Assembly (NCBI GenBank): GCA_002633005.1
Contig: NMRA01000634.1
Span: 1 to 64,000 of the forward strand
Source of the DNA: Phoronis australis
Taxonomy: Eukaryota; Animalia; Phoronida
Length of the DNA stretch: 64,000 bases
Reading direction: 5' to 3'
Position numbers and translations under genes: made by a program. The stretch's first letter is position 1. Every line of letters begins with the position of its first letter. The notes under the pieces are model-generated. The model ran no database searches. It had not been told where the DNA came from and saw nothing but the letters and a program-made list of their open reading frames with translations. Shown in pieces: positions 31,601-56,100 of this stretch.

Positions 31601-34600
31601 GATCTCAAGCCTTTTGAAGTTATTAGTTGGAGCATTCTTGATATATTGAACGATCAATGTGAGCATCATGCACTTTTGAAGCGTCAGAGTAAGAATTGCT
31701 GCATATTTCCGAACACGTGTTGGACGGAAAATAATCAGGAAATAACTCAATTGGAATTTTGTATGTGTCAAAACGACCATGACAGCCGCTTTCAGAATTA
31801 CTTATATTTGCTGATCTTTAAAAGACATGCCAATCACTTACTTGTTGTACAGAAATTATCCGCGAACAAATATGTCCTCAGTTTCCGGAGATCATGTCCT
31901 TTGGTGCATTTCTGTAACAATGTTGGGTGTTACCATACGCCCTTCTCCTCGAAGCAGAATGCAAGGGAACATGCGATTATTCTCCGTTTTTGTTCTGCTT
32001 TTGTTCCCAACTAAACGATGAGCCGAACTAAATGTTAACGACGCAAAACGTTCCCTGTCACCAAGCAGCAACCGGGGCGTGTAATTTATGTTCAGAAATG
32101 TTGACCAGCGTTACAGTAACCATAACCATACCCAACACACCAAGCTCTTTACTTCAGCTGCATTACATTTTTAAATAGTGTAATGGTTATAATGAAGGAT
32201 GGCAGTATTAGTCACGGTCATTCCCAGAACGTTTTTACTACTCTTTTTACTATCCTTATCAGGCTAATGCTGAGACTGAGTTTTTTTCCAGCTCGCCAAA
32301 CCTATTCTCCCTTGGACTGTACTTCTGTGAGTGGAAATAGCCAATCAGCGACCTGTCCCGCTGGTAAGACACGTTCAATACAACAATATCGATCGTAGAT
32401 ATCCCAAAATACGCCATGCATGTATAATAGTAATGTTCGAACGTGTGCGTTTATTCAAATACAAAGCCGTAGATTTTCCATAAAAAACCCATTTTCGTTA
32501 TTTGAAACATAATTTTACCATTTATATGTTATTTCCATGGAATTGTGATTAATTACCTCGTCTGTAGCCATGGCTGAATGGCAGAACTGCGAAACATAGC
32601 GAATGTCCCTTGTGTTCGGAAGCATTGCGTTTTAACAGTTGCGGGACCTTTTACTGTTGCATTGTCTGATAGATCGAAATATGAGATTTGGGAACCCCTT
32701 TTCCGTTCAACAAGAGAATGCATCTGACGAGCAACGAAAATTTTGTTAAACATCTGTTTCGTTTCAGACTCCATTATGCAGTCTGTATAAGACAATGCCT
32801 CGGTTAAATATGCATTTTACTCTGTTTAGTGGTTAATACAAAAGTAAATTTAACTAGTTCGATCTCATAATATTCTTTACCGCGTAGGATTTTATTTCCG
32901 TAACCAATTTCGAATTCACAATTTTGGGTTTCTCCAATCCCAAAACACAAAAATGTTCCTTGAGTCGCTGGTGGTAATCGAAATGGAATCTTGTCGCGAA
33001 AAGGAATATCATGATTCGGATTATTTGAGAAGAAAGCCCTATGCCACTTTCGTTTTTAGGCACCTAAAGGAGACAAAATGCAACTTTAAGAAATATGACA
33101 GTTAGGTTTCTGACAGTCTATATTGTTGGGTAAAAAATAAAGTTTTGGTGTGAATTCGATGATACACTTTCTAGCCAGCTAACCATTGCACATAAAAGGC
33201 AATCTACAACATTGGAGTCACGGTTTTAGAGTTTGGGTGCGCATAGTACTTATGGGGTAGTTCGAAGCACTTTTTGTCTCCTTAGAAGGCTGTTTGCTGT
33301 CAGTTTTTCCTGGCTATGTAATGTCACTGATTCGATGGCACCAATGCGCCAATTTTACTGAGACTCAATTCAAATCAAGCCACTTCATGCACACTCTAAG
33401 GCAAATGTATCTTCAGTTCTATCTTAGTCGTGTGTCTTCATAAATTTCAGACTTCCCGCAGGGCGTCGCCTGTCGATGTTCGTGTGCTAATGGCCGATGG
33501 AAACATTATCGACGCATATGCGACTGTTCTCTCTGCAGCTCAAACGCCGTTAGTGTGGCGCGCTGTTGCAAACCTCATTCAGGTTATTCACCCGGCCCCG
33601 ACTACAGGGCCTCTGTTGAATGTATAGAAAATCGTCATACACCCCGAATTGCAGCGCCCAGTGCAACTTGCCCAGCAAGTACGTATAGTTTAATGTCTTT
33701 CAACCCTAAGCAGAAATATTTTGCTATGACACAGCAAAATGAACCACTGAAACCAGCGAATTTTGGGTATTTTTGATTCATCTACAATTTCGTAAGCAGA
33801 CGACAGTTTCTGTTATATCAGATCGGGATCATACCTTCCATATTTTCCATAGCTCTCACGGTATCTGTTGTCTTAAAGATTGAATATGAAGTAAAACTTG
33901 GAAGTACGAGTATTTAGACCATACAGATACATATACCCTGGAAGCAAAGATCATAGACAACTAATTAGCCACTGCCATGTCATTTAGGTGTCCCGACTGA
34001 CGTAGTAGCGTAAACAACCAACACCGAACGCGAGGCGCCAGCTTTCCAAGAGGTTGCCCCACATGTACTCATTGATAATAAATGAATTTTATCCCATATA
34101 CGTGAAAATATGGATGCTGTATACGTCACGTTATTAAATGTAAAGTACGGGAAAGTAGAGTCGGCAATCCGACAAGCTTTTGATATTTTTGAATGGTTCA
34201 ATGCTTTAACTTGTATATTTCACAAACTGAAAAATCTAACCAATTTATTAGGAAATAAATATTTACATGTTATTCAACACTCTCACAAATCAGTCTTGTC
34301 GCTTAACCGGCTTGGGTACCGTATTTGGCACATCTATGATGTCATATAACAACAAGCCGGAGCACACGGTAACAGAGTTTTGCAGCGATGATGCAAATAA
34401 GTCCTTACATGTATGCATGAGATAATTAGGTTATACCACATACATAGGAATACTACTCGAGATCATTTCATGTGAATTCTTTATAGGATATGACAGTAAT
34501 ATTCCCATGTATGTGGGATAACCTAGTACATGTATATGTTTTTACTACGTGAGGGATTGCGTTTCTGATGATTGTATCAACAAAACCATATTCATCCACG

Positions 34601-37600
34601 CCATGCATGACACATTCTGTTCATCGAAGACGCCACAGCAAAACCTTTGGTCTCCAGCAATTACTTTTCAACGAGCTTTTCTTTGAGGAGATGACTCCAT
34701 GTCGCTTTCATTTTTATCTCTGAAATGTTAGGTAACAACAATTTCACTGTCAATAATGTAAAATTGACTTTCGGATTCTTGAAACTTAGTGAAACCACTA
34801 GCTTCGTCGGGTGGACTGGGCGGGGTGGGGGTAACTGTAAACTCACAGTGCTACGAAAGTTAGCAATGTGGAATGTTGTTTATCATGGCTTCCCATTGGT
34901 CAAAGTAATGAAACCGACGTCATTAACATTCAGTCATTCCCATCGGTTGAAATTTTGGAAACCCCTTACAGTTTACTGTTACGTAGTATGGCGACCACCT
35001 TTGACTTGAATAGTTGGAATTTCCCAATCCCATGGCGAAGCCCAACCAAGTACAGTGCATTGAAGTCGTCTGTAAGTGGTGGCCATGTGATCGATAAACT
35101 TCCGATCAAGCCTGCACATTCATGCCCACACACGGAATTCCGTGTGTGGTTCATCATGATTCCATAGGGCCACTTTTAGTATAGGTGGCGCTGCGTAGAG
35201 AAACACCCCTAATTACAGCACCCCTTGCAACAATACAGCAAAATGAACCACGTAAACGAGCGAATTTCGTAAGCAGGCGACAGTTTCTGTCAACTCAGAG
35301 CCCCGGGGATCGTACGTACTTTCCGTATTTTCCATAGATCTCACGGTACGGTATGGACTTAAAGAATTGAATATGAAGTAAAACTTGGAAGTACGAGTAT
35401 TTAGACCTCACAGATACCCTGGAAGCAAAGATCATGGACAACTTATTAGCCACTGCCGAGTCATTTAGGTGTCCCGAGCGCAAGGCGCCAGCTTTCCACG
35501 CCGTCTGTTGTGAAGAGGTTGCTCCACATGTACACATTAATAGCAAAATTTATTCCCTAAATGTGAAAATATGGATTCTGTACACGTCACGTTATTAACT
35601 GTGAAGTGCGGTAAAGTAGAATCAATCATAAACAACGGTAGAAGCCGTATACAATGGTAGAAGCCGTATTTCACGGTTGGTGAGCAGTCTCCTGGTGGAG
35701 TAAATTCGCGAGTGCAACGATTGAATTCGTTCATTTGGGTTACCCAAATCATCGCCCCAAGGTGTCATTCCTGAAAAAGCAGTTTTACTGCTCTAAAAAT
35801 TTACCGATGAAAATTTCGAACCACGGTGATCAGGCGGCTATTTTTGGGCCTCGCTGAAGTTTCAATCAGGGTCATCATAAATAGGTCAAGATAAACAGCG
35901 TCCCCGGCCAACAAAGTCAGCCAAAATCTAATTCAAATCCATCGAAAACGTTTTTTGTGGATGCATACAGTGTATGTATTCTGAGAGCTAAGGTCTTTAC
36001 AGGAAATTGCGACCTAATTAAATATCAAGTATGTGTATTTTTCTGAAACTATCGTCTGCTTGCCAGTCTCCGTCGCTAGCGGTCGTAGCGTAAAATCTCC
36101 TTTTTGCGATACAGTCCCTTACCTCAAGTTCAGAAAATCGGCAGAGATTCCATCGTTATTTTCCAATGCTGTGATCAACACTGGGAAATGTTTATATGAT
36201 AATTCACAGTCCAAAAGCTAAGATACGAAAATAGACGAAGAAAACTAAGAAATTCATCGAAACTGAAATGACACACGGCTACACAAAGTCTGTTCAGGGA
36301 ATTTTTCAACTTTTATAGTCTCGGATGGATTGTTTCTAAGTTTCCGACAAACTTTCACAGATCAATCTTGTCGCTTAACCGGCTTGGATACCGTATTTGG
36401 CATACAAATGACATCATATATAACAACACGCTGGAGCACACGGCAACAAGGTTTTGCGGCGACCATGCAAATAAGTCCATATACAGTATATGGGATAAAT
36501 AGGTTATCCCACATCCATAGGAATACTACTCGAAATCATTTCCCAACTCGACCTTCGGTCTCGTTGGGACATTCCCGAATGAATTCTCGATAGGATATGG
36601 CAGTAGTATTTCTATCTATGTGGAATAGCCTATTATATGAGAGAGAGANNNNNNNNNNNNNNNNNNNNNNNNNNNNNNNNNNNNNNNNNNNNNNNNNNNN
36701 NNNNNNNNNNNNNNNNNNNNNNNNNNNNNNNNNNNNNNNNNNNNNNNNNNNNNNNNNNNNNNNNNNNNNNNNNNNNNNNNNNNNNNNNNNNNNNNNNNNN
36801 NNNNNNNNNNNNNNNNNNNNNNNNNNNNNNNNNNNNNNNNNNNNNNNNNNNNNNNNNNNNNNNNNNNNNNNNNNNNNNNNNNNNNNNNNNNNNNNNNNNN
36901 NNNNNNNNNNNNNNNNNNNNNNNNNNNNNNNNNNNNNNNNNNNNNNNNNNNNNNNNNNNNNNNNNNNNNNNNNNNNNNNNNNAGAGAGAGGCTTGGCGGA
37001 GGGAGGAAGGGAGAGAGGAAAGAAAGGGGGAGGGAAGGAGGCGGGGAGGGAGGAGACATGAGAGATCTTCAAAAGCAAAAGCCACTCCATTGAGGGTCCC
37101 TGTACAATACAATACAATGCAGTACGATATAATACAATGCAGTACGATATAGTACAATGCAGTACGATACAATACAATTTAAGTAAGCAATAAAAATACA
37201 AGACGGTAATTATTAGGCCCCATTTACATATATTTGACAAACAGTGAACGATTGAACGACTGACATGTAGAATCAACAGCCCAAGTACTTCATTAAATGA
37301 ATAAACTTGACACCTGATTACAAATAACTAGCTGCTCCCCTACTATAAAACAACACTTTTTGTCTTGCAAAGGTTTTGGTGTAGTTAACGAATGTCGTTT
37401 TGCAGATTTCCCGACAGCTACAGACTGCTCGTGTGGTTACTGCAATGCAGATTTTGAGATTACCAACGAAAACACGTGCAACTGTTCCTCTGCCACGACT
37501 GATTGGGCCACAGCACAGTGCTGTAGGATCGTATACACGCCGAGATCAACAGGTTGGTTTTTACGTTTAGCTGGTGGTTAAAGTGCGCGATCTTGTCAAA

Positions 37601-40600
37601 TCCGCTATAAAAAGTGTTACGGACCATGGTCTGGGTTTGTCATTACAATGTCGTGTTAAGCATTATTTTTTGAAAATACGTTCATAGTAAAGTAGTGGAA
37701 CGGTTTTAAAGAACGAACAGATCTGTCTCGTTTTCAGAGGCTGTTCTTACAGGATTCTGCTGATTCCGCTAGACCACCCTTCTTTAAAAGTGATTGATTC
37801 TATTGACGATGTTAGTTTTGGTCCAAATAGGGCCATAAGCAGTTGAAACCCCAGCACGACTGTTGTTAACATTATGTATTCACATATTGTATACTTGCGA
37901 CCCTGTTGTTGGGTTTTGGTGAACTTGAGAATGTTGAATTCGACTTCATAAAAACATTGGATTTTTGTCTTTCTGTAAAAGCATAAAGTTAACAGCAATT
38001 GTGCCGTGACTGGTTCTTGATGACGACTTCCGTCTTTTAGATGTTTTACCCGGTTCATCAAGCTGAACGGCGAAGTCAGTCATGAGAAGCTAAATATGTA
38101 ATAGAGCCTGCACCTCATATTTTCACATCACGAGTTTTATTTGAATTCCAGTCAGTGACTATACGATATTTATTGTTGCTTCTACCATTGATTTAATGCA
38201 ACTGTAGGTGACCAACTTATAGAGAAATACTTGACAATAGACGGCATCGTTATCGACGGACACGACAATTGGACACCTTCGGGCGTTACGTCAGAGGATG
38301 AATGTTTGCAAGCGTGTGAAAATCAGGTGACTTTCTTCTTTCAAAAAGTGCTTTTTATGCGCTTTCAAAACACACCCTGCTGGTACATATCGTCTGCCCT
38401 TCTTGGCTGGATGTCGTCCACCAGTCGTTGCTTATTTGTCTTGAAAGTTATTTTTACTGATCTTTAATTGCTGGAATTTGACACAGATACATGTGAGAAA
38501 GGGCCAGCAACACTTGATTTTCAAATGGACTACAGTGTGTTAGCCATTTTAACGTTCAGTGAGGTTGTCCATGTCATTCCATTACTTGTAACAGATACTC
38601 TACTACACTATTTCACGGGTGCCGCAACACTGAAATAAGTGGGGAGAATATAGCCCTCCCCCAGCCCCACTATGCTGCGCCGCCCAACCACATGTATTTT
38701 AGATATGAGGCAAAACGAGAATCCACATAAAATTAGCTGTAATTCATTGCGTATTCCTGTTCACAGAACAAGGTGACTCATTTATTTGACATTCTAAACT
38801 GGTGGATACGGCTTAACGCATTTTTTGCTCTCAACACGGAGAGAAATGGTTGGGAGGTTGCCAGCGCCTGAGACTGTTCGACAGTGTCTACCTAAATATT
38901 TTTCATATCAGTGAACACTGATGACGCGTAATACACTTGCACTTTACTTAGCTATCTCCCGTCTAGATATGTAGATGCGCCCAATGAGGCCAAAGCCACG
39001 TCCCTCTTGCGAAAAAGTCACAGAATCTATTGGTTTCCCGCCTAAATAGGGTTTGAATTGAGTGCCGTGGACACAAGAATCTTGCTAGTAAAGTTAGGGT
39101 GCTTTGCTTGTGAAGCATTGCGATAGCTGACGAAGCTTTGCGTTTCGAGAGTATATTGCGTCTCTGGAACAGGCTCAAGGCAGCTGTCTCGCCTTCCTTA
39201 ACTTGAGGCACAGAAAACACCTGAGTGTGCTGGCACCAACTATACACGAGTCCACGATTTTGAATTGGGTATTACAGAATAATGAGTTGACTAATTAGTT
39301 CATTAATCTGTCAATTAGTACATGAAGGGTTTTATTAGTATTCTCTGTTTTGTTGCATTTTGGTAACACTCTTGGTTTTTAGAATGAAAAAATGTTTTAA
39401 GCCTGTCCAGTATGCAAAATGATAATAAAATTTATGAAGTAAATAATTTATATTTTGCTTGTGGTATAATCATACACCATCACGAAATGAGAAAGGATTT
39501 TCTAATGGCATGACTCTTGTGCCATTCTAAGCTTAATTTATTTGTACTAACCAAACATTTCACCCTGGGCTCTATGTTTTATTGCAAGGACAACACCGGA
39601 AGGAACGAATGCAAACAAATCCCACGCATGCGCGACACCATCTCAGTCACGCGAGATCGAAGTTGGTATTCCATGTCTAGAGTTGAGCTGACTTCCTAAT
39701 GTAGAATACCCATCCTTTTTTCTCTCGATTACGGTTCTATCTCTCCACCTGCGACATTATTTTCTCATAATTGCGATTTTTCACAAATAGCCGAGGCCAT
39801 CGGCAAATTGTACGTGTAACAACAAAACACCTACAAGCGTACGCCACTTGCCATGGTCTCCCTTAAAGTATCGTTTGATTATTAGGTCGGGTGTAATTCT
39901 GTTGAGTTCAAGTCGTCTGATAGCACCTGTCGACTGAGTGGGTCCGCAATAAAGCATGTCGGCCTATCAGGGTTACTGCAACAACAGTCGGGATATACGT
40001 ACTACGAGAGGCTGGACGGGGAAGGTGAGGATGTGTAAACCATCTCAGAAAATGTATTCCTTCATGCCAGTTCTGCACCACTAGAATTATTGCAATTATT
40101 ACGATTTGTATGCTGTTAGCGTTAAATACAAAGAAACGAGGCCAGGCCATTTTCAAGATATTAACCTTAGTAGTCATGCTCACAGACTCAGAGGACTCTT
40201 CAATGGCCAACTAGACGCGAAGCATGTCTTTGAATAGGTGCACATCTTAACAGAAACGGTGCTTATATGATGATGTTTTCGTATTACTGTTTTCGGCATT
40301 AAGTGCACACCAGAACTGTCAGTTGCGATGCCCTACGTAGCAATATGTTTTAATTACTGAAGTCTCTGTAAGTTCAACAGTGTTTAACATGACTTTGCTT
40401 AGACTTTTTATTAACTGACATCGCGCCTTAAGTTATACGCACTAATAACCTACGCGTTACTTGTCTGCAAGTATTTACTGACACGGGGCTACAAATAGAA
40501 ACCCGTTGAGCACAAATTCTTTGGACTAAAATCTGCAGTTGGAACTTTACCTTTGGAATTCGCGATGACCCTGAAGCAAAAATAAGTTGCTGGTACAACT

Positions 40601-43600
40601 GAACACAGGGAAAGTCAGGTGACGAAGAAAGTAAGCACCATTTTTGGAAATATCAATATTTTCGACACAATTTCTTCTTCCCATGCCATTTTATCAAATG
40701 TGCCTCTGCCGAAAAGTTTATATGGTCATTTCAGAAACAATGTAAATATCAAGCAAACAAATTAAGTCATTTTAATACACGTACTGACCTAGTTTTTACT
40801 TGTCACACCCATATTTGGAAACGAGACCAGTCGTCTACCCACATGTTACAATCATTCAGAACAGACAGGCTCTTGTTAGCGTAAGTGGAAACAGACGATT
40901 GGGTTGAATTTTGGAGTGGCGTTTTTAATCGTTAGATTGTATTAACTTGGGACAGTCAATGCTTGTGAAAATCAGTGTGGAACAAAGGACAATTTTTTAA
41001 TCCAGATAAGTTTCGTAATAGCAGTTTAAACAGAACAAGTTTCAAAAACTTTGTTGAAATTTCGTTTCATTATTACATTGAAATTGATGTAAATAAAATA
41101 AAAATTGGACGTGGTTCGACAACAGATACTTTTAAATGGTTGATGTCGGCATTGCAGTAGGCTGTGTGGTCTGTTGCATGTCTTTTAAAAATTGGCAGAC
41201 TAGGCGTTTTTTTCCGACCGGTCGACGATCGGCCGCAGACTCGTTTCGGATCGACCGCATAAAATCTTGTGACCTGCAAAAACACTACTAATGAAATAAA
41301 ATAACGACTAAGGTAAAAGTTCTACTATTTAGACGAGTTTCTGGTAACATATTGTTTTTTACAGGAGATATTCGAAATTACTTTCACAAGTTTGACGGCG
41401 TTTACCTCTCCGGCGTTACTGCAATTAATACCATAAGCGACTCCCAGTTGACTATGACTTCATGCATGACTATTTGCTTGGAGGACAGCTCGTGCAAATC
41501 GACGGATTTCGATTCGTCAACTAAAACATGCTACTTGCGAAGTGGAAACAGTTTTGATGGAACTCTGACCGTGTCCAGATATTACTACCACTTTGATCTT
41601 ATCACGAGTACCCCAGGTAAGAACCTCTAACCGCTTTACATGATAGGACATGGCATCGTCTGCAACTGAGTTTTGAGTAATCGCCTCGTCGCCAAAACTA
41701 TAGACGTTTCCAGATGACATTTTGTTTTCATCCATCTCCAAGCTTGATTATCCAAAGTGATGCTTGGACTGAAAGGAAGGACCTAGTATGAGAAGGATGG
41801 GTAGGAGAAGGAAATGACGAGGTTGTGAAAGTAGTGATGTTATTTTTTGATTAGCACCTCATTAAAACTTGCAGTAGATGTCAGCTTTTGAGGTGGATGT
41901 TGTTAGGAATATCGCACCAACTATGCTGAATGAGAGTAGGACCACACATTTTCAGAAGTTGAATTTAGTTTATGAAACTATACACTGTACATCTTTAATA
42001 TTGCGACGCGAAATGAATAAAATTTCGACGTTTGACAGGCGATACGACAATTACGTCGGTAACACGATGTGAGAAACACGGCCCCTCGCATATCCGTGTC
42101 TCCGATTTTTTTCTGACATTTGCCGTCTCCACTTGAACACCTTCTTTTCGATTTCTTTTCCGTTCTTCCCATTTGGTTCAAGTTTTCCCATCTAAAAGGT
42201 TATTTCACATTGGACGATCTAGTCCGACCTCGTTTCCATGTTATTTTGCTGGTAGTAATGCATAGGTTTTAGTTAGGCAGGCATCTAGCAAGAAGAAAAT
42301 GTACATTGACAAAGGATACTGACACGGACGAAGCCGGCACATGCCGCTTCACAGGTTGAAGCGACACCTTCCTTTAAACCCATGTTCTGGGACACGCACG
42401 CATACTGTTTGAGATCCGTAAAAGGTCTCTTGTGCATGGCGATTGCTGAATGAGTTTTTTCGAAAATTTTCCACTAATTCAGGAGCGTACAATTTCTGAG
42501 TCGTGTTTTAGGGGTATGGGGAGATATTTGAGAGTCCATGTCTTCCAAAATGTCCGTCAAAATCACTACCGCCACCATTACAAGTGTTAGCACCACCCAA
42601 GCCTCTCGGCCACAAAGCCAAACTCCATTTGCAACTTGGGCATTCTGTGTTTTCATGTCGATGCGTAACAGAAATGATGTTGATAATCAAAAGCTGTTCA
42701 TTATCTAGGAACGCAGTATTAGTCATGCTGGGACTGAAACTAAAGTCTTCACACGGCAAAGCGACTAAACAGCAATCTCACCATTGCCGATAACGTCTTG
42801 ACCGTGAGCACCATCTCTAGTGTTTGAGTAATCAGGGTTTTTTGTCAGCTTAATACAGTTGCAGTGCAATGTACCATAAAACAGAGCAAGTGTAAAAGTA
42901 ATATTTTTTCACTTTCAGATCCCTTCTTTACTTGCGACACGGTGAAAAGCAGTGAAGCTGACGCTAATCAATTCTCCTGTGGAGCAATAGGTATATTCCT
43001 AAATGTATTGCATTATTGCATTCTTATGCGTTGTGAGAGTATTATTACCGTAATCCTTACCTGGAAAGGCTATCTGTAAGTACGGAGTAACTGGACAATT
43101 TGTTTATTCTGTCAGACTCTACAAGTAGGCCATCGACTAACTGTTTCAGCATGTTCGCAAATCTATACATGGGTTTCAACCATTCGACTGTTTTCGTCTT
43201 TGTTCAGATACTTGATACGCAATTCTTGACTTTTAGGATACCCGGGACCAATATTTTCAATAATTCTCAATATTCACTAGAAATGCATTTGAATTGCAAT
43301 TTGATACTTTCGTTTCATACTACCAAAGCAATGTGAGATCCAAATGTCTTTTAACTTGCATTTCAGCCACGTGGATGGATCACTTCACTTACGTTCAAAC
43401 CGCAATATTGTCGGGTTACAATGATGAATTGCCAAACAGCGACAAAAACGCGTGTCTGAAGCAATGTCACAACTCTGCCAGCTGTAAAACTATCGACTAT
43501 TACGACAACGCAGGTAAAAATTTCAACGATTGATGGTTTAGCCACTTTATTTCGGCAGGGTTCCATGACTTAAGTTATTCGACACATTACGTGATCTTGA

Positions 43601-46600
43601 AAGACCAATCCTTTCCGTCAGTGATTAGTGAGCGCACTGGGTGTTGTGTTTCTGCTATTATCATTTGCCCTCATCCACGGTCAACTTCAGATAACATTTT
43701 CACCTCCTCTATCCGTTTATTACACTTCGGCTAACCGGAAATAGCAGAAACACCCAACGCCATCTTCGTTCCCTTGGAAGAACTGTTACATTTTGACCCT
43801 TGTGGATTCTCTGTTCAGGAGAAAAAAACATTGAGACACGACTCGTAAAAAATTATTACGTTCGCGATAGCTAACCAGGTACATCAATTAGTCTATACTT
43901 ATTTCATGAAGGGTTATTAATAAAAACAAAATCTGGGAAACTACTTGAACATTTTTCTAAGGCAGGAGTGATGGAAATAGTCTATGAATCATCTTTCTGT
44001 TTTATTCTGATATGATGTAAAACTTAAAGAGTTTCATTTTAGACTATAGAATGGAATCATAAGTTGTAAATCTTTTTTACATAAAATTATAGTCAAGGAC
44101 TCGGATACATGCTCTTTTTGTGAAGAGGAATCTGAAGACCCAATTTTATCTTTATTTTTTTTGGCCTCGTACCAAATACTTTTTGCATTCGTTTGAATTG
44201 TGTTTTTAGACAAACATCTGTAGTGCTTAATTTAACTCTTTTTGTGAAAACTGGCTAACGCAATTAAATTTCACATATATAAAACAATGCTAAAGAATTT
44301 AACCCTCGGTTTAGATCGACCAAAATAGAAGTTCTAGATTATTTTAAAGTTTGATTTTTATAAAACAGTAAATTTGTTGAGTTTGAAAATAGGTGGAACG
44401 TATGAAACGTTTATTCATCCTCAAGGCCATCGGCCCACAGTACCTAATATCAGCCAGAACAATAAAATAGAGTGAATAGGTTTGCGCATGTGTAGTAGTT
44501 TCAATCGTCAAGTAGTTTTAGTCTTAAAACAGAAGCATGATATACAAATTTGATTAGGTTTTTAAGCTAAAAACTTGAAATAGATGAACTCTTTTAGATT
44601 CACTTTTTATCTAAACGTCTTCACATCTAATCTCTGTGCAAATGTGAGGTTTGTATGTGGTGTGAATGGTATATCTCTTATCTGTGTTGGTGTACAAGCA
44701 TAACTGTTGTCATCTTTACTCACTACAATGTGAATTATGGATACACTCTAATAAACATTAAAAAATAGTAAAATGCTGCATAATTTCATTTTTGAACGTT
44801 CTAAATAGAAACCATTAACGTGATTGAACTCGAGTTTTCTTATTTTACTAAGTGTTTGCTAGGACTATCTAGTTAGCCTAATACATCTAAAGTAACAAAA
44901 TCCCGTTGAAGTTAGGCTTTAAAGAATCTTTGCGGCATTTGATGGATGTATTACCACAGAACCGACAGCGGGTGATAATGAATTACAGACTGATTGGAAT
45001 GCCGCTGTGCCCCATAGTGGCAAATTTTGCATTTGCCTCTGTATGTTCGGAGTTCATAAATGGGTTTCGTGAAACTCAGGTAATAGTTTTCTGTTATGGA
45101 AGCACTTGTGCTTTCCATTTTCCCACGGATTTGGCGTATTTTGCTCCATTTTCGTTGTTTTTAGTCCGTTTTTGCCATCGCCTCTGTATTTACCGAACCG
45201 CCGAAGGATTAATATGAGAATCGGTATTATTTTTAATTATGAGGAAAGTATAGCTAACTGTCGGTCAGGTGCGGCTGCTGTGGCACTCCAGAATGACAAC
45301 GCTGATTTTTGTTTGCGTCCAGAGCTGCATTTCCTTAATCCTTTGCAGGATCTAGTGAAATTGTGTCAAGTGTTTTTCTATGAGTGTGACAACAGTAGAC
45401 CGCGTAGGATACAGGGATCTAACTACTGCTTGTGACAATTTTAGTTTTTACATTTGCCTCTGTATTTTTGGCGGTACTTGACAGTTTTTTATGAAATTTT
45501 ACGTATGGGTTTCTCTTATGTGATGACCGAACCTTTCGGTGTGGAAACAGATTTGGAGTAATTTACGCCACCTTGTGGGCGCTCCTGACTCTATTTGTGT
45601 CGTCTGTCTGAAAACTGGCAGATACCTGTATGTACTCCCTAACGTTGACTTTCGGGTGGCTCCGATCACTGCGGTGTCCACTACTAGCATTTTTGCATCT
45701 GCGATTGTGTCTTCTACACTCCGCACTAGATGTTTCTGAAGTTTGACGAGTGTATTCACATTTACTTGACAACAGTTGGGCGAATCCCGATTAGACCTCT
45801 GCCTGCCTGTTTTTTTTACATGAGTTCCTTGACAGCTTTTCCTGAAATGTGACATATAGATTCCTGGTAGAGAGACGACGACTCCTTTCATTTTTCGGAC
45901 TGGTTTAACGCATTCTGCGCCATCTGGGGAGCAATTTTGATACTCATTAACACCATGGAAGCTTGACATTTGCCGTGCAATCGTGGACGCTTTTCAAAAC
46001 TTCGCGTTGCCCTTGTTTACGTTTACCTCTGTGTCTTCGATGTTATTCAATAATTTAATGTTCATGAAATGTTGCAAATGGGTTTTTATTAAGGAGGCAA
46101 CGAAACCTCTTTGTTTTGGGATCGATTTCAAGTATTCTGTCAGGTGTATTTCTTATCAGAAGATCATTAATTTGCGGACAACTCCAACTATTGTGGCGCA
46201 CCCTAATGGCATTTTTGCGTCTGCGGCTTCTTCTTCTACACCCCTTGCAGGATCTTTGTTAAATGAATTTGTATTTTTATGAATGTGACAACGGATGACG
46301 ACAACTTATGTGGAGTTAGGGACAAATCCCAATTCTGTGCTGTCCCCTAATGGCAAATTTGGTTTTCTTTGCGTTTCCTTTGATATCTACAGAGATTGTT
46401 GATGCGTCTTCTTTAAATTTGGCAAAAAGTAACCATCACGTAGGCGAGAGCACCTGCATGTTGGGGATTGATTTGATTTGTGTGCTCCCACTAGTGGCAT
46501 TTTTAATATTTTTGCTGTCTGTTCGTTGTCGTGCGCTTCTTGATCCTCCAAACACCTTGACGAATTTTACAAAAGGCGAAATGAGTGTTCCTATGAAGGA

Positions 46601-47890
46601 GATCATTAGTGACTGGGTTTGCCCCCTACAAGCTACTGGATTATATTGTTCCCTTCACTGGGAATTTCTTTGTATTTGTACTTAGTAAAAATGCAGATCC
46701 CTGGTTATACTGAATATACATTTTACCGAGCTCCAGTGTACATGTAAGTGCTGTTCCCTGGCGTGTATTTATTATCCAAATAACAAGAGGAAGTGACGGG
46801 AATTGCACCTGTCCTACTCGATATTGAACCTAATCTCTGTCGGTCATTCATGTTTCCTCAATGGAAATGAGAGCAGAACCAAGATAATGAGCCCTTTACG
46901 TCATTTTCTGTTGTTGCGAGGATAGCAATAACAAGAGACCAATTCATTAACACAAAAAGTACTTCCAACATAACCAGATATCTGTGGATTTGCTATAGGC
47001 CACATCAAAACAGTTGCTTCCCATTTTGAAGGCGATGAATTGTTTGAAGCTGCTTGCAAATGCACGTTATCAATACTGCTTTTCATTTTTTTTCCAGCTA
47101 AAACTTTCATATGCCACATAAGTTACTCAGATCGCTTTGCAGTATCGGCATACCTAGCGGACAGCGCGTATTTCGAGCATTTTATTTTTGACAGTTATCG
47201 AGGTAAGTATCATTGTTATTATGTATGTGTCAGTTACCTGGCTCCTCACGCTTTGCATAAATTTTATTACATGTATTATGTATAAGTCCTTCCACAGTCT
47301 TTTCGGAACCTAGTGACTTTTGACTCCGATTGGATATTGCAACGCCTCTCATCAGTCAACGTTGTTGACACATAACCACACATTCCCATTGCCCAAATAT
47401 AATGCTTGAGGTGATACTGCAGTTGTCACGCGCCTAGATACATGTATGTGCTCTCTCACATAACATCCTGATCACCTCGGGTATTTTCGTGGCTTCAAAT
47501 TTTCTCTCAGAGGTGAACGTTGTCTGCACATGAGCGAAGTTCAGTCATACATCATTGTCTTTCAAACTGTAGGACGATTAACCGTGTGACTAAAGTTCGC
47601 ATATGCACAAAACACCCGACGTTTTCCGAAAGATACATCTTCCGAAAAACCTCTAGTATTTTCGCATCCCTTGGATGTGTTTCATGTCAGCTTAGGTGCC
47701 AACTTAAATCTTGACAGCAAGTCATGTGACTCCCGAAATGGAAAATGACATCAATGCTCTGGGATTCCCAAGTGATAAAAGGCTTAAAAAGCTTGGTTGA
47801 AGTCGTACCTATCTCTTGCCCGAATCCATCGACTATAATGACGAAGACAGAAGACAATTCCGCAGGTGTTGCGGATGCGTTTACACACAT

Positions 47891-47964
<74 letters not shown>

Positions 47965-50900
47965 ACGCACACACACACACACCAGTACGTACACGAGACA
48001 AGTTTTGTTGAACACTACATTCTATTTGTTTTAATAGCCTTAGGCCTAATAGATAATAACGCTCTAAGTGGAAGCAGGCTTATCTCGCGTTAGGCGTCCG
48101 TAAAAGCTGACCAAGGCTCATGGCAGAGAGGAAACACACAAAAAGTCATTGTTACAGGTTTCACATTCAAATCACATAACGAGAATACCAACAATAGTCC
48201 GGTACTTCGTCTGTCATGAGACGTCTTCGGGGAAGATCCATCAGCGGTGATCACGAACAAAATATCATACATACGTACGCGCATGAATGCATACTTACAT
48301 ACATACATGCATACATACATGTACATACAGTGTACATAGATACATGTCGAACCCCCTATAAAGGCATGGTAGAAGAGTTATGTCAAACACCACGTGAAAA
48401 AAATTGATCTACGACCGCAGGGCCAGTTGTCTTCTGGTTTGGTTAATGGCAACGGCATTCATATAGTAACGCTCAGTACCAGAATAAGGTGCTTAATGGC
48501 AGGAAATGACTTTTGGGGGAGACAGTGTGTCATGGTGGGTTGAGTGTCCACCTTCCCCTTCTCAAGGTCATGAGTTCAAATCCCAATGGACACCACTAGC
48601 TGCTAGACCATTGATTAGGGTCTCCAGCTCCTCAACTCGGTCGTAATGTATGCATTTGTGTTTTTGTGTTATATGTGTAAATTGATAAACGAAAACTGGT
48701 ATTGGGTGGATGGTAAAATATGGATCTGGCTGAGCGCTCTGCACACGTCTAATGCAACAAGTGTCAGACCAACAGCATTAGAATTTAAATTACTTCTGAC
48801 TTTGAGGGCGCCATTCACATTCGTTACAACTTAGGAATTGTCAAGTGTTACTGGATGTATTTTTTGCTGTTAAAGATACAATGCCTCTTTAAATTGCGGA
48901 TATGCAAATGAAGTACTAGTTTACAAACAACCGCGGTTCTTCTGGTGTGCTGGAAACCACACAAGGACCAGTTACCATTACATTGTCCCGAAAGTCTCGT
49001 TTTGCGGGTCTATTTATATGTAAATGAATATGGTAATATGTCATCGTTACCCTAATATTTGGAATTACTAGGGTTTCTATATGTTAAGATTTGTTTTTAT
49101 GTATATCAGTTGTGGTGTTTTCTTTAAAACCCCATGTTATTCGCAAGTTGTTTCTTTTCCTGATTATACTTGTACACAGAGTTTTCCAGGAAGTTACAAG
49201 GTGGCGGTTGCTTTAAATTTAAATATTCACGGTTTTAACGAGACATAGAATTTTAAGATAAATGGTTAAACATCACTTGTATACTACCTCCCGTTATTAC
49301 GCTTAAATGTACATGTACATATTCCAGCAACGTATAACTTCAGAATCAATGCTATTTTTAAAATGCTGCTATTGAAATTGGTCAGTTTCACTAGAAGATA
49401 TTCTGTCACTGTTCATCAGGAAATTACGTGAAGGACTCATTTCGGAAGACAGCTGGACATGTAATCACGAACACCAACTTTGCCAGTTATTCAAGCAAAA
49501 CAGCGGAGGAGTGCATGCAACTGTGTTTTGACAATCCTACCTGCAAATCGATTGATCACGATCCCGTGTCTGGAACTTGTCATCTGTCAACTGTATCTCG
49601 GCACAGCGACTCCGTGCTTTTCTCAACGCACTCGTACGATTACTACGAGTTCATCGGCAGGCGAGGTAAGGGATGGTCTTCTGAATAATTTTCAGTAATT
49701 TTTGCGTCGAGATTGCATAAGGCAGTAAAGTGATTAAAATGCCCTCGCTTTTGACGAGATGCTGTGGGTTCATTATTGAAGCTAAATGCCCTCGTTTTAA
49801 AAGAATCTGAATAAAGACGAGTTGGACCTTCCGTAAGGTACACTTTGCCGAGGTACACTTCAGATAAGGTTACCTTACGCCTTGCACCATTTTGGAAGCG
49901 TCCTCAATTCTTTCAGATGGGTGCAAAGTTCACGTTACACGTAGGTCTAAATACTTACATTATAATATTGAAATCATGCATTAATTTGTTTTCTTCAATT
50001 TTCGATCCACAGATTTTAACGGCAAAACAACGACCGTTCAGTGGGTTTCGTTGTTCTTTATTAAGATGTCGCATTGAAATAGCGATGCTCGCCCGTCCAG
50101 TTCATTTTGGTAAATAAAAAATGACAAATATGGCAGCATTTTGAACAGGAAAACACGTTTGCCGTTCTCTCTATTTACCTTTTATTGAATCTACAAATAC
50201 TTCAGATTATTATCTCATCCACCTGTACTTACAGCCTATCCCACAGACTGCTCATGCAGCGGCTGTGCTTCTTACGACTACCTGAACGATGTGACCGGCT
50301 GCAGATGCCACGCTTCCGACAATTGGGGAATGGTTCTCTGTTGTCACGCTAAAAGCTTGAGAAGACCTCGTAAGTGTACAAAACAAAGTTGTAGGTCGAC
50401 AACAGCGTTTGACCCGTACAACTCTAAATTAGAAACTAGCTATCTGACTTGACCATTTTCACAAAACTGAGGTCACGAGAAAAAATGACATAGCAACGAT
50501 GAACTCTCAAAGGTTTTAGACTACCAGAGACTCCCACGTACCGATTTCACTATAAATCAGTAAGGCTTCTCGAAATACATTTTCTGAAAGTTTATTAAAG
50601 ACCGCGACAGAAAATCTAATAAAGACCTTGCCTATCTAAACTGAGTTTTCAAATTAGCTTGTCAGTCAATTCGAAGACACGCCCACCGATTTCACTGAAA
50701 CTGAATGAGTCTTCACGCTAAAGATGCGCTCCAAAAGCCCTAATATTCATATGGATCGCACTCTAAACGGACACGACACAAAATATAATCCGTCAGCATG
50801 CCGGTTTTAGGGCATACGCGGACATCTTCCTTCTGATAATTGTGGTTGTCCCCCATTACGACACCTTGGATCTGAAAGTGCGCTAACACAGGACAATCAA

Positions 50901-53091
50901 CTCTGACCTAGAGGTTTTTTTGGACAGATGTGTTTAATTCAGTATACGAATTTTATCATTTATCGCTTACATATACGTCACAAGGTTCGGAAATTTACCA
51001 ACCTTTATGGCTTACTTCTAATATCTTGATTGGTCACAAACCTGCTTACATTCGATCCTTTTATGAAAAAGGCGTAAGATTTGTTTGTGATTTATATAAT
51101 GAGAATAGACAACTTTTATCTTTGAACATGTCAATCTCAATATGGGGTGGGAAATATGTTGCAAACATTTAAGTAGTGTCTACACGCCTCACCACGTGAT
51201 CTAATGAATATAAGTCCGAAAAAATTTCTACCTCGGAAGGGGTTACATCTCTTATTTTACACTCAATTCTCCACAAAATTCAACTTCAGGATTTCTTTCT
51301 TAACCTTTTTACAGCTTACGGCAAGGTGTTATACAGTTACTTAAATGCAATGAGATGAATAATTTTGAACAAAACTCCCACTATTCCCAATGGTGCTACA
51401 AAGTATGACACGTGATAAGAAGGGAATTCGAACTTTTTACGAGAATTTTTTGAAATTTTATATAAAAGCCCAAAATTTTGATCAAGATGGGAAGCTGATT
51501 TTGTAATTGAAAAGTCCGAATCTGAGTGGCGATATATTTTACGTAGCGCTTTTGACTTTATCCCTGTCAATGACATACGCTTAAAGTGGATGCAGATGAG
51601 AATTGTCCACAGAATAATAGGAACAAACAAACTGTTGTTACAAATAGGAGCTAGTGATTCCGGTCTATGTAGCTTCTGTCATGCGAGGTCAGAGTAAATT
51701 GCTCTTTGTTTTTTGACATATCTTTCGCGAAATCTTCTGACAAAAATATCGGTTTCGTGTGTGCGTGTGTGTGAAACTTATGAATGTGCATCAGTCAACT
51801 CTAGATGTACTGGTTACCGGTGATACATGTCTGTAAGGACTTGTTTATGATATGTGATCAAGTACTTGGTTATCTAACAAAGTTGGAGTGAAAAAAAAAG
51901 AAATTAATAGGTTTCCGTGATGTATATACGTTACCATAATCAGAAAGTTTGGTGAATTTTTTCCTAGGAAACAAAATCAGACAAAAGTCATCTCCAACAA
52001 ATCTCTGTTGACAACAATGAAGTCCTGCCGTGTCCTTACTGGCCAGTCTCAATCTGAAAGCGCGCGCGTGTGTGTGCGTGTGTGCGTAATTTTGTTTCCG
52101 ATGCATTGTCATAGGTATGTGGTCTCAAATGCGACAGCGTCGCGCTAAACGTGGGCTAAATACCGGGAAAGCAGTTGTCCTGTAATAACTACATGTATAC
52201 AAGAAATGTCCTCTTACAGCTTGTAAACCCGGCACCTACTCGCCCACGGGTTACCATGGCAGCATTCGCTGTTCACCTTGCTCAGCTGGGACCTTTTCTT
52301 CCAACACCGGAAGTACGGAGTGCCAAAAGTGTCCCGCAGGTAGGTTGGACAATACTCTTCCATTTAGATTATTTACAGTTTAATGTTGTACCGTTAAGAC
52401 ATTTGTAGTTGTTCGGCATAAAGCAAAGCGTTACATAAAATGTATCTTAAACCAAGTCTGCGCTCGTTGGAACGGTACTGCTCTCAAACAAAGCCCAGAA
52501 ATAATAGCTTAAAGTAACCGAACGTAGTATGGGCTTTCCATGCCTCTTTAAGAAGATAGTGTTCATGATAATTTTGTTCCTTGTCAGGTTATTACTCGGC
52601 TCAAGGTCAGGCACAGTGTACGCCTTGCGACCACGGCTCCATTAGCAACATCTCTCGCATTACATGTGAACCGTGTCCGTCTGGCTACACGTCTCTTCTG
52701 GGAGAGTGTGCAGGTAATGGCAAATATCCAACGTGCAGCTCTTTAACGGGACATTATCGGCTTTACGGTCGGGATTATTGTTAGGAGTTGTTAGCTTTGG
52801 CCAGAGCTATAAAATTGCAAATACGATGCTAGCAGTTGTCTGCCAGACAGGCCGAAAGCAAGGCCGGTGACTTCGCTAACTAAATATTCTTACAATACTC
52901 CGTCATTTATCGAGTGGGGTTTAGTTGCGTCAGCAGAGATTTTGACTGCTACTATAGGGTTTTGAAGATTCGATCAGGTTTATCAGAAAATCACCAGGTG
53001 TTGAGAGCACAAACGCCACTTCTGCTTCACTCAAATTCTAATTCAGGTGTGTTGACGATGGCGAGGCGCAATTTCTTTCATTCGTACACGC

Positions 53092-53125
<34 letters not shown>

Positions 53126-56100
53126 CAGGAGCTTGCTGCATGCTGATGATTCAGCTCTGGTACGCCTATGGTTAAACATGGACTTTTAAAAGGATAGAGA
53201 AAAGACTAACGACGTAGTTCTAACAATTATTTATTTATTTGCTTATAGTACTTACACAGTAGATGGAAATGGAAACCTTAAGTGAGATATTATGAAATGT
53301 ATCTCATTGAATGTATATGATGTATTAATTTCACCATTCGTCGTTTTAATTGCTTACTCGCTTTTGTATAGAACACTTTCAAAATTACCGCATAAGACCA
53401 GATGTTGTTTCTGCTGAGGTGTCGTACTTGCTACCAGAAACCACGACGTCGTCGGCTGAGGCATGTCGTCAATACTGCGAGCACAGTGTCACGTGTGTAG
53501 GTTTCACATATAACACCGCAACTGGAGCATGTTCTCCGAAGAAATACATTGGAACAGACACCAAACCGCTCACAAATGGGACAAGTCTGTACGACACAGC
53601 AGGTAAGATCTTCTGCCACCTAGTGACCGTCTTACTAGTGATGAAAACTTATGATGTCAAGATATTGTACCGTTTGCATTAGTGTAAATCTATGGGCGAA
53701 GGTTTTTCACCCTTACGCTGTTTCAAGTATCCCCACTAAAAACAGTGGAACAAAACACTCTAGATTCTAAAAATGGATTGAAATGTACTTAGACACCTGC
53801 TCGATTTTTGGAAGGGGTGAAACTGAATTTTTCGTCAAGTTTAAATTTTGCGTTTACAAGTAGTAACTCTGTTTCTAGAAACACTACCAACATGAAAATG
53901 GTTCCAATGATCAACAAATCTTATCTTTGATTCAGAAACGAAGTAAATGCAATTCGTAGCCTTACACGTAGTGCAAATCTAAAAGAGCTCAGCCAGTCAA
54001 GCAATTACCGGTTTCCGCTGAAATTGAAGGGGGTAAATACTTAAACCTGAAAATATTACCAAAGCATTCACAAAAATTGCTTGAAGTTCAATTAAATTCT
54101 AACCAAAGCGAATTTTAAGATTATCGCCAATGCAGTCGGTTGCTCCAAAGGACAACTTGAAGCAAAAATTCACAAAATTGCCTGTTTTCACTCAAAAAAA
54201 CCTTCTTAAGCTCGAGATTGAAGTAATCGAATAGATATTGCACTCTGACTACCAAACCGCCCGAAGTTCTAAGATTTGTTGAATAGTAGGAATCCACTAT
54301 GTCGACCATTGCTGTGCAACTATTTTTCAATACGATTTTGTTCTGCAAACTTCGCTGAGGCGGCACTGATTCAGCCACCCGAAGAATCCAAACGATTATA
54401 TCGTGCACCGCTTCAAACGTGTCTGTTTTAAGAAAAACGACGTTTTGGTCGAGGCTACATTTGTTCTGCTATTTTCGCTTTCGCGCCTGATCTCTGTTTT
54501 GTTGTGAATTGACGTATTTATCTCCCATGTCACGCTCTGCGATGGGATATGAAGTCATTCATTGGCGGATATTGTAATATGATGCAAACATTTTTTTCAT
54601 TTTTGTGACACCGGTGTTCAGAAACTTATTCCTGGTGTAATCGAATTTGTAATCCCATACGACGGTTCTAAGATGTCGTAAGGCGGAGCATCTACTATTT
54701 TCGACCAAAAATGTTGGCATTACCACAAAAGTTGGCATGCCTGCATTTTTGTTTGGATCTGTGTAACTCTGCTTTTTCAAGCAGTTGACAAGATTTGCTT
54801 TGTGATGTTTATGGCTAAATCGCAATCAAGGTCCATATTCGAGAGTTGACTGTGTTACGGTCTAATAATTTTTTTTGGTAACTTACCAAACTCCGACTGA
54901 ATCTCATATGCAAAGAGTTCTTTAGTTGTGCAAATTAAAAAATCAATCATCAAAATCGGACAATGTTTGAGAAATTTATGTATGTTTTTGTCTATGAATT
55001 TCATGCATTGTTAGCGTTACGAGTGGCCATTTTAAAAATTACAATTTTCAATTGTCAACAGTAGAAAAGAAATTTATTTTATCAAGTAAGCAATTGCTTA
55101 GATATGACTGGGAATAACTTAGATGAAGTTGTGCTTAATCATTGAGAAATGGTAAGGTTCATCATAAACCAGGCACTCGTTACGGAAATTGTGAATTCTG
55201 TGTTTCTAACCCTCACCTACTGTAAAGAAGGTTAAAAACTAAAGTTCAAACTCTGTCATAAAAAGAACTGCCTAGGTAACACAGCAAATTGTTCAACATC
55301 TAAATAAACCAAAAGTTTGGATATTGACTGGGCTCTGCTATGTTGAAAATTCGCCAAAAAGGCTAACGAAAAGGCTACGTACCCCCATGTGCAATTCAGT
55401 AACACAAATGGTTATTGCCAATGAAATTATTGCCTTTTAAATAACAATATATCATCAAAGAAAAATAAATGGCCATACAACATTATGTTACCATGTGATG
55501 CAAAAACAGTGATGTAGTGTACGTACGTACCCCCTCCCCCATGTAGTTTACGTACCCCCATGTTTACAAATTCCATGAAATTAAAATATCACTTGGTAAG
55601 TGAGCAACACTGGTCGTAGACAGTTTTCTTCCTCAAAAATGTTACGTTAAAAGGGGGTTTATTACAATTACATTTGTTTTGAGTGAAATATTAGCATTTG
55701 CGTAGTGTACGTACCCCTATATTTTATTTTGTGCCTATTTTCAAAGTACAGCAGATATGCACATGAATGCTGTGTTTTTTATGTTTTCTCTTTGAATTGA
55801 TTTAGTAAATCAACTAATTCTCAGTAGATTCTTAGTATTTAGTTACAAACCTGACATGTCATTGAAATGTAGTGTACGTAACCCTATGCAGTGTACTTAC
55901 TCCGATGTGAACAAATGCCGTGAAACAAAAATATTACTCGGTAAGTAAGCAACATTTGTCACAGACAGTTTCCTCCATTAAAAATGCTAGGTTAAAAGGG
56001 TGTTAATTACATATACATTTGTTTTGAGTGAAATATTAGCATTTGTGTAGTGTACGTACTCCTATATTTTAACATGTGCCTGTCAAAGAATGATAGACAG

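Follow-up and report, generated by a model that had tools for sequence, protein, structure and literature searches.

Gene Organization

The window analysed here comprises 64,000 nucleotides of the phoronid Phoronis australis (contig NMRA01000634.1, positions 1 to 64,000 of the forward strand, assembly GCA_002633005.1). It is animal DNA with a GC content of about 38%, containing assembly gaps, and it carries one long gene on the plus strand. In the rebuilt gene model, 22 exons, all bounded by AG and GT, are spliced into 1,189 stop-free codons, a figure that represents a lower bound on the length of the encoded mosaic protein, and 18 out of 21 introns are in phase 1. Based on the results of Pfam analysis, the first part of the protein consists of PAN1, PAN2, a C-type lectin domain with a SUEL domain inside it, and resistin-like modules 1 and 2. 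These are followed by PAN3, PAN4, exon 15, PAN5, PAN6, exon 19, two cysteine (Cys)-rich repeat exons, PAN7 and the PAN-like exon 23, for which no Pfam match was obtained. Its domain content suggests that the product most likely acts outside the cell, in glycan binding or adhesion. The present work concerns the region 42919–50369, which is free of N in the assembly sequence, and where a third resistin-like module appears to be split between exons 15 and 19 by two PAN domains. Exons 15–19 had been delineated in an original prediction made from the sequence alone, and every one of them is present with its translation (Table 1).

Resistin-Like Modules

For comparison, a profile of six vertebrate resistins (62 positions) was used in hhalign and in script-made alignments. 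Exon 19 matches this profile with a probability of 83 (E-value, 8.6e-6) and, judged from its sequence, the C-half of module 3 is homologous to vertebrate resistin, in agreement with the resistin-like C-half that had been proposed for this exon. In Pfam, exon 19 scores 13.9 bits with PF06954 (E-value, 0.082), which is below the 25-bit gathering cut-off, and exon 11 passes with 33.5 bits. A search of PDB sequences matched exon 11 to RELM-beta and resistin and gave no resistin match for exon 19.

A six-frame scan of the entire 64 kb revealed three C-half motifs, found only in exons 10, 11 and 19. The predicted count of three resistin-like modules is right, with exon 10 holding the C-half of module 1 in addition to the module 2 N-half, which occupies its 3′ end. 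In two of the three cases an N-half lies immediately upstream, separated from the motif by a phase-1 intron; exon 19 is without one. Modules 1 and 2, which are uninterrupted paralogous repeats within the same gene, are each cut by their phase-1 intron a few residues past the second Cys, and the end of exon 15 and the start of exon 19 match these split points. The N-half of module 2, when compared alone with the resistin profile, gives no significant match (E-value, 0.15).

The number of Cys is 9–10 per module, with nine each in modules 2 and 3. Exons 15 and 19 together have the spacing C-x14-C-x8-C-x-C-x2-C-x11-C-x-C-x10-CC, in which Cys8 is absent. The same Cys is missing from module 2 (37406–37552) as from module 3 (50235–50369). 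Since Cys8, which we take to be the partner of Cys5 in resistin-type modules, is absent, Cys5 of each would lie unpaired, and the two could bond each other or another chain. The last part of intron 10 (37318–37405) runs on in frame into exon 11 and contains a C-x10-C-x8-C stretch that mimics a resistin N-half, probably by chance. The stretch was not accepted as an exon, because the candidate acceptor has the wrong phase and because the N-half is already provided by exon 10.

Exon 15 as the Candidate N-Half

Exon 15 is likely the N-half of module 3, as its position, the shared phase-1 intron and Cys bookkeeping indicate. It contains two Cys that are needed by no neighbouring PAN (PAN4, PAN5 and PAN6 have four Cys each). 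When exons 15 and 19 were joined by script, the product scored 15.9 bits against the resistin profile and covered its positions 6–60 of 62; the controls scored 14.4 bits (exon 19 alone), 9.0 bits (exons 18 and 19) and 8.8 bits (exons 14 and 19). At 15.9 bits, compared with 25.2 and 40.2 bits, module 3 diverges further than either of the other two.

The arguments originally advanced for exon 15 proved to be of unequal weight. Exon 15 does have the size and phase of exon 9 (both are 72 nt long and of phase 1-1), but with x11 between the Cys of exon 9 and x14 between those of exon 15, their equal length seems to be a coincidence. The direct join of exon 15 to exon 19 is open and gives C-x8-C, as predicted, but the fact that it stays in frame carries no weight: with 18 of 21 introns in phase 1, any phase-1 pair is in frame. 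Likewise, the C-x8-C spacing is indeed restored, but the spacing there is x9 in both intact modules of this gene, and the joined module has nine Cys, not the canonical ten.

Other half-exons, for which a search had been suggested in the original prediction, were sought between exons 15 and 19. The strict six-frame half-exon scan used a pyrimidine threshold of 0.6 and missed exon 9 itself (0.59), and the scan between exons 15 and 19 was relaxed. Five out of 59 open phase 1-1 candidates in this interval fit a loose N-half pattern; they have weak donors or acceptors, three of them overlapping exon 17 and two lying beside a low-complexity tract. The C-half pattern was absent from the interval in the relaxed scan, and no credible half of either kind was found; the refuting arrangement named in the original prediction, with a separate N-half before exon 19 and a C-half after exon 15, is thus not seen. 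A complex prediction for exon 19 with exon 15, the latter extended to 30 residues with flanking intron codons, gave 0.02 against a mark of 0.34 and left the controls unfolded, and it was not used as evidence.

The PAN Insert

The insert (exons 16–18) is 498 nt long and encodes 165 residues with eight Cys, four per PAN. The two PAN domains expected between exons 15 and 19 were confirmed by Pfam PAN_1 matches of exon 16 (25.5 bits) and exon 18 (53.7 bits) above the cut-off of 21.4 bits, together with the four-Cys pattern; exon 17 alone has no Pfam match. Exons 16–18 have good phase-1 splice sites, lack a start and a stop of their own and are read through in frame. Introns 15 and 18, which flank the insert, are both in phase 1, as in a class 1-1 cassette, although same-phase flanks are weak evidence in a gene where 18 of 21 introns share this phase.

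Both domains resemble the PAN/apple family (PF00024), which includes the N-domain of HGF and plasminogen, in that exons 16 and 18 pass the Pfam test and the PAN6 model finds a match there. That model (pLDDT 68) matches the HGF N-domain with a Foldseek probability of 1.00 but an E-value of 4.9e-3, and it also matches HGF NK1 and plasminogen. A PDB sequence search with exon 18 gave nothing at E ≤ 0.1. In PAN domains the termini lie close together, and the extra Cys pair of the six-Cys form links them. PAN5 and PAN6 are of the four-Cys form and, unlike the six-Cys PAN2 of the same gene, are without that pair.

The PAN domain most similar to PAN6 within the gene is PAN4, at only 25% identity (best pair score, 92). 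As PAN4 is its upstream neighbour, this fits local duplication, by which the insert probably arose, as far as sequence similarity indicates. A tandem duplication of exons 12–15 followed by loss of the second N-half was considered and is not supported: no trace of a second exon 15 is present, the two blocks share no similarity at the DNA level, and PAN3 and PAN5 are neither each other's closest relatives nor alike in the phase of their internal introns.

Table 1. Exons of the resistin-like modules and their neighbours in the P. australis gene (positions in the 64,000-nucleotide window).
Feature	Position	Strand	Evidence
Exon 9: N-half of resistin-like module 1 (C-x11-C)	32292..32363	+	72 nt, phase 1-1; hhalign with the vertebrate resistin profile, E = 4.8e-5
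Exon 10: C-half of module 1, linker, N-half of module 2 (C-x15-C)	33451..33678	+	C-half motif scan; splice sites
Exon 11: C-half of module 2	37406..37552	+	Pfam Resistin, E = 6.6e-8; RELM-beta 1RH7, E = 1.9e-7; X1 RNA depth
Exons 12–13: PAN3	38208-38326, 39886-40024	+	Pfam PAN_1, E = 0.0034 and 0.017 (two halves); X1 RNA depth
Exon 14: PAN4	41365..41616	+	Pfam PAN_1, E = 9e-10; 3 reads splice exon 14 to exon 15
Exon 15: likely N-half of module 3 (C-x14-C)	42919..42990	+	72 nt, AG..GT, phase 1-1; RNA junction 41616>42919; position and Cys pattern
Exon 16: first part of inserted PAN5	43367..43513	+	Pfam PAN_1, E = 1.2e-5
Exon 17: second part of PAN5 (fourth Cys)	47098..47202	+	Strong splice sites; completes a four-Cys PAN in alignment
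Exon 18: inserted PAN6	49420..49665	+	Pfam PAN_1, E = 1.8e-14
Exon 19: C-half of resistin-like module 3 (7 Cys, terminal CC)	50235..50369	+	hhalign, E = 8.6e-6
Exons 20–21: Cys-rich ephrin-receptor-like/TNFR-like repeats after module 3	52220..52713	+	Pfam Ephrin_rec_like, E = 6.7e-8 and 4.6e-6; X1 RNA depth

Apart from the exons listed in Table 1, another phase 1-1 exon with a PAN-like Cys pattern and no Pfam match is found at 57655–57921. The intron after PAN7 contains a tandem repeat (55537–56246; 2.1 copies of a 345-bp unit), and an (AC)50 tract is located at 47883–47982.

Transcription

RNA evidence was obtained from three raw-read runs (X1–X3), about 18–19% of each being used, and from one contig set. 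Reads were mapped on two separate stretches (37200–47870 and 49300–52800), on which a skip from exon 15 to exon 19 is visible only as loose ends, and a junction was accepted at 3 reads. In X1, the junction 41616>42919, which joins exon 14 to exon 15, is covered by 3 reads with 3 starts; their first mates lie on the minus strand, consistent with a plus-strand transcript. Exon 15 is transcribed, and the objection foreseen in the original prediction, namely that it might not be, falls away.

Depth in X1 (mean about 1.7) was recorded on exons 11–15, in the bins of exon 17, and on exons 18, 20 and 21. Exon 16 has a depth of 0.41 in its bin in X3 and 0 in X1 and X2, exon 17 has a low sense-strand depth in its bins in X1–X3, and exon 18 has a depth of about 2 in X1 and X2. 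In intron 16, short interspersed repeats (44819–44922 and 45432–45500) collect many RNA reads from other loci. The skip from exon 15 to exon 19 gave no junction of at least 3 reads and, among the loose ends listed, none at 50235.

Relatives

Homologue searches with single exons were unproductive: for exon 19, no candidate was obtained among proteins of 78–2000 residues, and for exon 10, none of the 15 candidates among proteins of up to 2,000 residues reached E ≤ 1. In the ESM Atlas, exon 11 has two matches at 0.76, both without a family, and exon 10 has no match. When the C-half profile was run against 1.84 billion representatives, three matches were returned, two of them fish resistins and the third a repetitive cnidarian protein, which has no Pfam match and was dropped. 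A search with the resistin profile retained five of 389 candidates, all longer vertebrate proteins (frog, turtle, two hagfish and lamprey) with one continuous head each. The hagfish and lamprey proteins (P0006–P0008) consist of a collagen stalk and a resistin head and are named collectin-like or collagen-like in the source; according to the literature, no resistin was found in the one jawless-fish genome searched in a survey of the family (PMC4467842). Among the full-text literature matches listed, neither an invertebrate resistin-PAN protein nor a split resistin domain was found.

Discussion

The reading that we favour, with a probability of roughly 0.55, is that a cassette of two PANs was inserted into a resistin-like domain, at the intron located in its strand 2-3 loop, that the separated halves co-fold, and that disulfides hold across the insert. 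Exons 16–18 would have entered the same phase-1 intron that splits the other two resistin-like domains at the same point. In vertebrate resistin, the second coding intron lies just after Cys2. Both coding introns of human RETN and RETNL are in phase I (PMC4467842 S2 Fig), and an alligator gene has an in-frame duplicate of exon 2 (PMC4467842), from which the exon boundary of resistin appears to be an old symmetric site. In the AlphaFold model of a fish resistin, which matches 1RGX with an E-value of 7.5e-10, the split point falls in loop 57–61, between strands 54–56 and 62–68. With the intron placed in the strand 2-3 loop, the N-half would therefore supply two strands and the C-half four. The resistin head is a six-stranded jelly roll (PMC8253364), and in the full-length protein the two strands of exon 15 would pair with the four of exon 19 to close such a six-stranded sandwich.

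The disulfides may act as the clasp. Resistin has a bond between its second and ninth Cys. Five disulfides are internal to the resistin head (PMC13647132), a homology model of human resistin has its first head Cys bonded to the last (C51–C104; PMC6545779), and the modules of PCSK9 have Cys1-6 and Cys2-5 pairs (PMC9113161). Based on these pairings, both Cys of an N-half would need the terminal CC of a C-half, which, for the two Cys in exon 15, would be that of exon 19. Each inserted PAN, with four Cys, should need no outside partner. It is because the Cys of exon 15 would otherwise be unpaired, the CC of exon 19 has no N-half nearby and the PANs are self-contained that the halves are thought to co-fold, and the PAN pair would then be pinned as a loop grafted on the strand 2-3 turn. 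An isoform in which exon 15 is joined directly to exon 19 may also exist, and is not required. More speculatively, packing of the three modules might resemble that of the PCSK9 tail, giving a pseudo-trimer within one chain. The wider proposal, in which such a pseudo-trimer is independent of PCSK9, the strand 2-3 intron is a socket, and the disulfide-held PAN graft can be removed by skipping, is a long shot.

Splitting of one domain is the most economical reading, yet its key link, the identity of exon 15 as an N-half, rests on position and Cys logic, and a number of results weigh against it. Exon 15 was originally called a resistin N-half, a claim that its position and Cys pattern fit and that no sequence test makes significant. 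Exon 15 has no Pfam match, and its hhalign E-value with the resistin profile (0.31) is like that of a PAN-tail control (0.32). Its score was equalled by 26% and 44% of 5000 shuffles and, in a further shuffle test, by 169 and 184 of 300. For the joined exons 15 and 19, 24 out of 400 full shuffles of exon 15 and 134 out of 400 with Cys fixed do as well; in the same test, the corresponding counts are 0 and 0 out of 400 for module 1, and 2 and 14 out of 400 for module 2. An N-half profile found no resistin in PDB. As the shuffle and profile tests were negative, exon 15 adds to the score of module 3 only through its Cys positions. The resistin/RELM family has a ten-Cys motif, C-x11-C-x8-C-x-C-x3-C-x10-C-x-C-x-C-x9-CC (PMC6545779), from which module 3 departs by the absence of Cys8 and by non-canonical spacings. 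Having failed this test and, exon by exon, that of Pfam, module 3 is to be called resistin-like rather than a member of the family.

The transcripts add to these objections. X1 gives no depth for either exon 16 or exon 19 (each zero has a chance of 0.05–0.25 in a rough Poisson estimate), and exon 19 has a depth of 0 in all four runs. In the portion of the RNA runs that was used, neither the 15>16 nor the 18>19 junction was found at 3 or more reads. X2 and X3 have depth only around exons 16–18, with none on exons 11–15 or 19–21, and these few reads (43367–49665) could reflect separate expression of the PAN cassette. Finally, no orthologue or invertebrate relative of the protein was found in the exon and profile searches.

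Some of these observations would be expected if exon 15 were a short linker, either not derived from resistin or no longer acting as such, with its two Cys bonded together, and exon 19 an orphan C-half, deprived of its N-half, that folds alone or with another chain. The failure of exon 15 in every sequence test, its C-x14-C in place of the canonical x11, and the divergence of module 3 (15.9 bits vs. 25.2 and 40.2) all speak for such an arrangement. On the other hand, this would deprive the terminal CC of exon 19 of its usual partners, the position of the intron after the second Cys is shared by exon 15 and modules 1 and 2, and the N-half of module 2 is likewise not significant when tested alone. 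On balance, we consider a linker unlikely. It is improbable, too, that module 3 folds only when exons 16–18 are skipped, so that splicing toggles between an intact module and a disabled form bearing the PANs. The skip is open (546 vs. 712 residues for exons 9–22), the donor of exon 15 has the weakest score of exons 9–22 (3.8), and some 196 bases of X1 fall on exon 15, compared with none on exon 16. However, openness would follow for any phase-1 pair, X1 lacks depth on exon 19 but has it on exons 17–18, and no loose end stands at 50235 among those listed.

A fault in the gene model or assembly would explain why X2 and X3 reads fall only on exons 16–18: these exons would be misplaced or would belong to another transcript unit, leaving exons 15 and 19 as ordinary neighbours. 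The assembly is indeed imperfect, with gaps and a 92–96% duplicate across a gap at 24.4–31.6 kb. However, there is no N within 42919–50369, exons 16–18 have good splice sites in phase 1 and read through in frame with no start or stop of their own, and the closeness of PAN6 to the upstream PAN4 fits local duplication, which together make such a fault very improbable.

The nearest known counterpart of module 3 is the vertebrate resistin/RELM head (PF06954; 1RFX, 1RGX, 1RH7), with which it shares a homologous C-half, a Cys framework ending in CC and phase-1 coding introns. Members of that family are small secreted proteins of about 110 residues with one head and a helical tail, and the relatives found here all have one continuous head; the present protein differs in having three copies within a mosaic of at least 1,189 residues, no helical tail and an interrupted module 3. 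Three resistin-fold modules per chain are also present in the C-terminal Cys/His-rich domain of PCSK9 (M1–M3), which is structurally homologous to the resistin trimer (PMC9113161), although PCSK9 was only a weak match in a fold search with the fish resistin model (E-value, about 0.27). The modules of PCSK9 have six Cys and are contiguous, whereas those described here have 9–10 Cys, two PANs lie between modules 2 and 3, and module 3 is split.

The route of insertion, a phase 1-1 cassette placed in an intron, resembles known symmetric-phase exon cassette insertions, for which discontinuous hosts and nested insertions are described (PMC2662426), and intronic insertions are given as less than 10% of domain gains (PMC2926785). 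What differs here is the host, a disulfide sandwich of 60 residues with an insert nearly three times its size, in a gene with a second nesting. The other nesting in the same gene, presupposed by the original prediction of a second nested insertion, is that of the SUEL lectin domain (23942–24075, 25371–25530), which lies inside the C-type lectin domain (17700–17877, 22677–22780, 25770–25865). This nesting is bounded by phase-1 introns, the join of the C-type lectin exons across SUEL is open, and its presence counts in favour of the split-domain reading. Two of these exons, the second of SUEL and the last of the C-type lectin domain, recur with 92–96% identity across an N gap (24396–27327 and 27478–31607), probably as an uncollapsed haplotype and possibly as a tandem duplicate.

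If the favoured reading is correct, a disulfide sandwich of 60 residues would tolerate, at one loop, an insert nearly three times its own size, and this loop would represent a natural grafting site on the fold of resistin and the PCSK9 modules. Close homologues of resistin, a family for which the survey in PMC4467842 covers vertebrates only, would then occur as repeated modules of an invertebrate mosaic protein, and a single gene would contain two insertions inside domains, a PAN pair in a resistin-like domain and SUEL in a C-type lectin domain. As domain insertion via phase-1 cassettes is already known, such a finding would extend, and not overturn, the current understanding.

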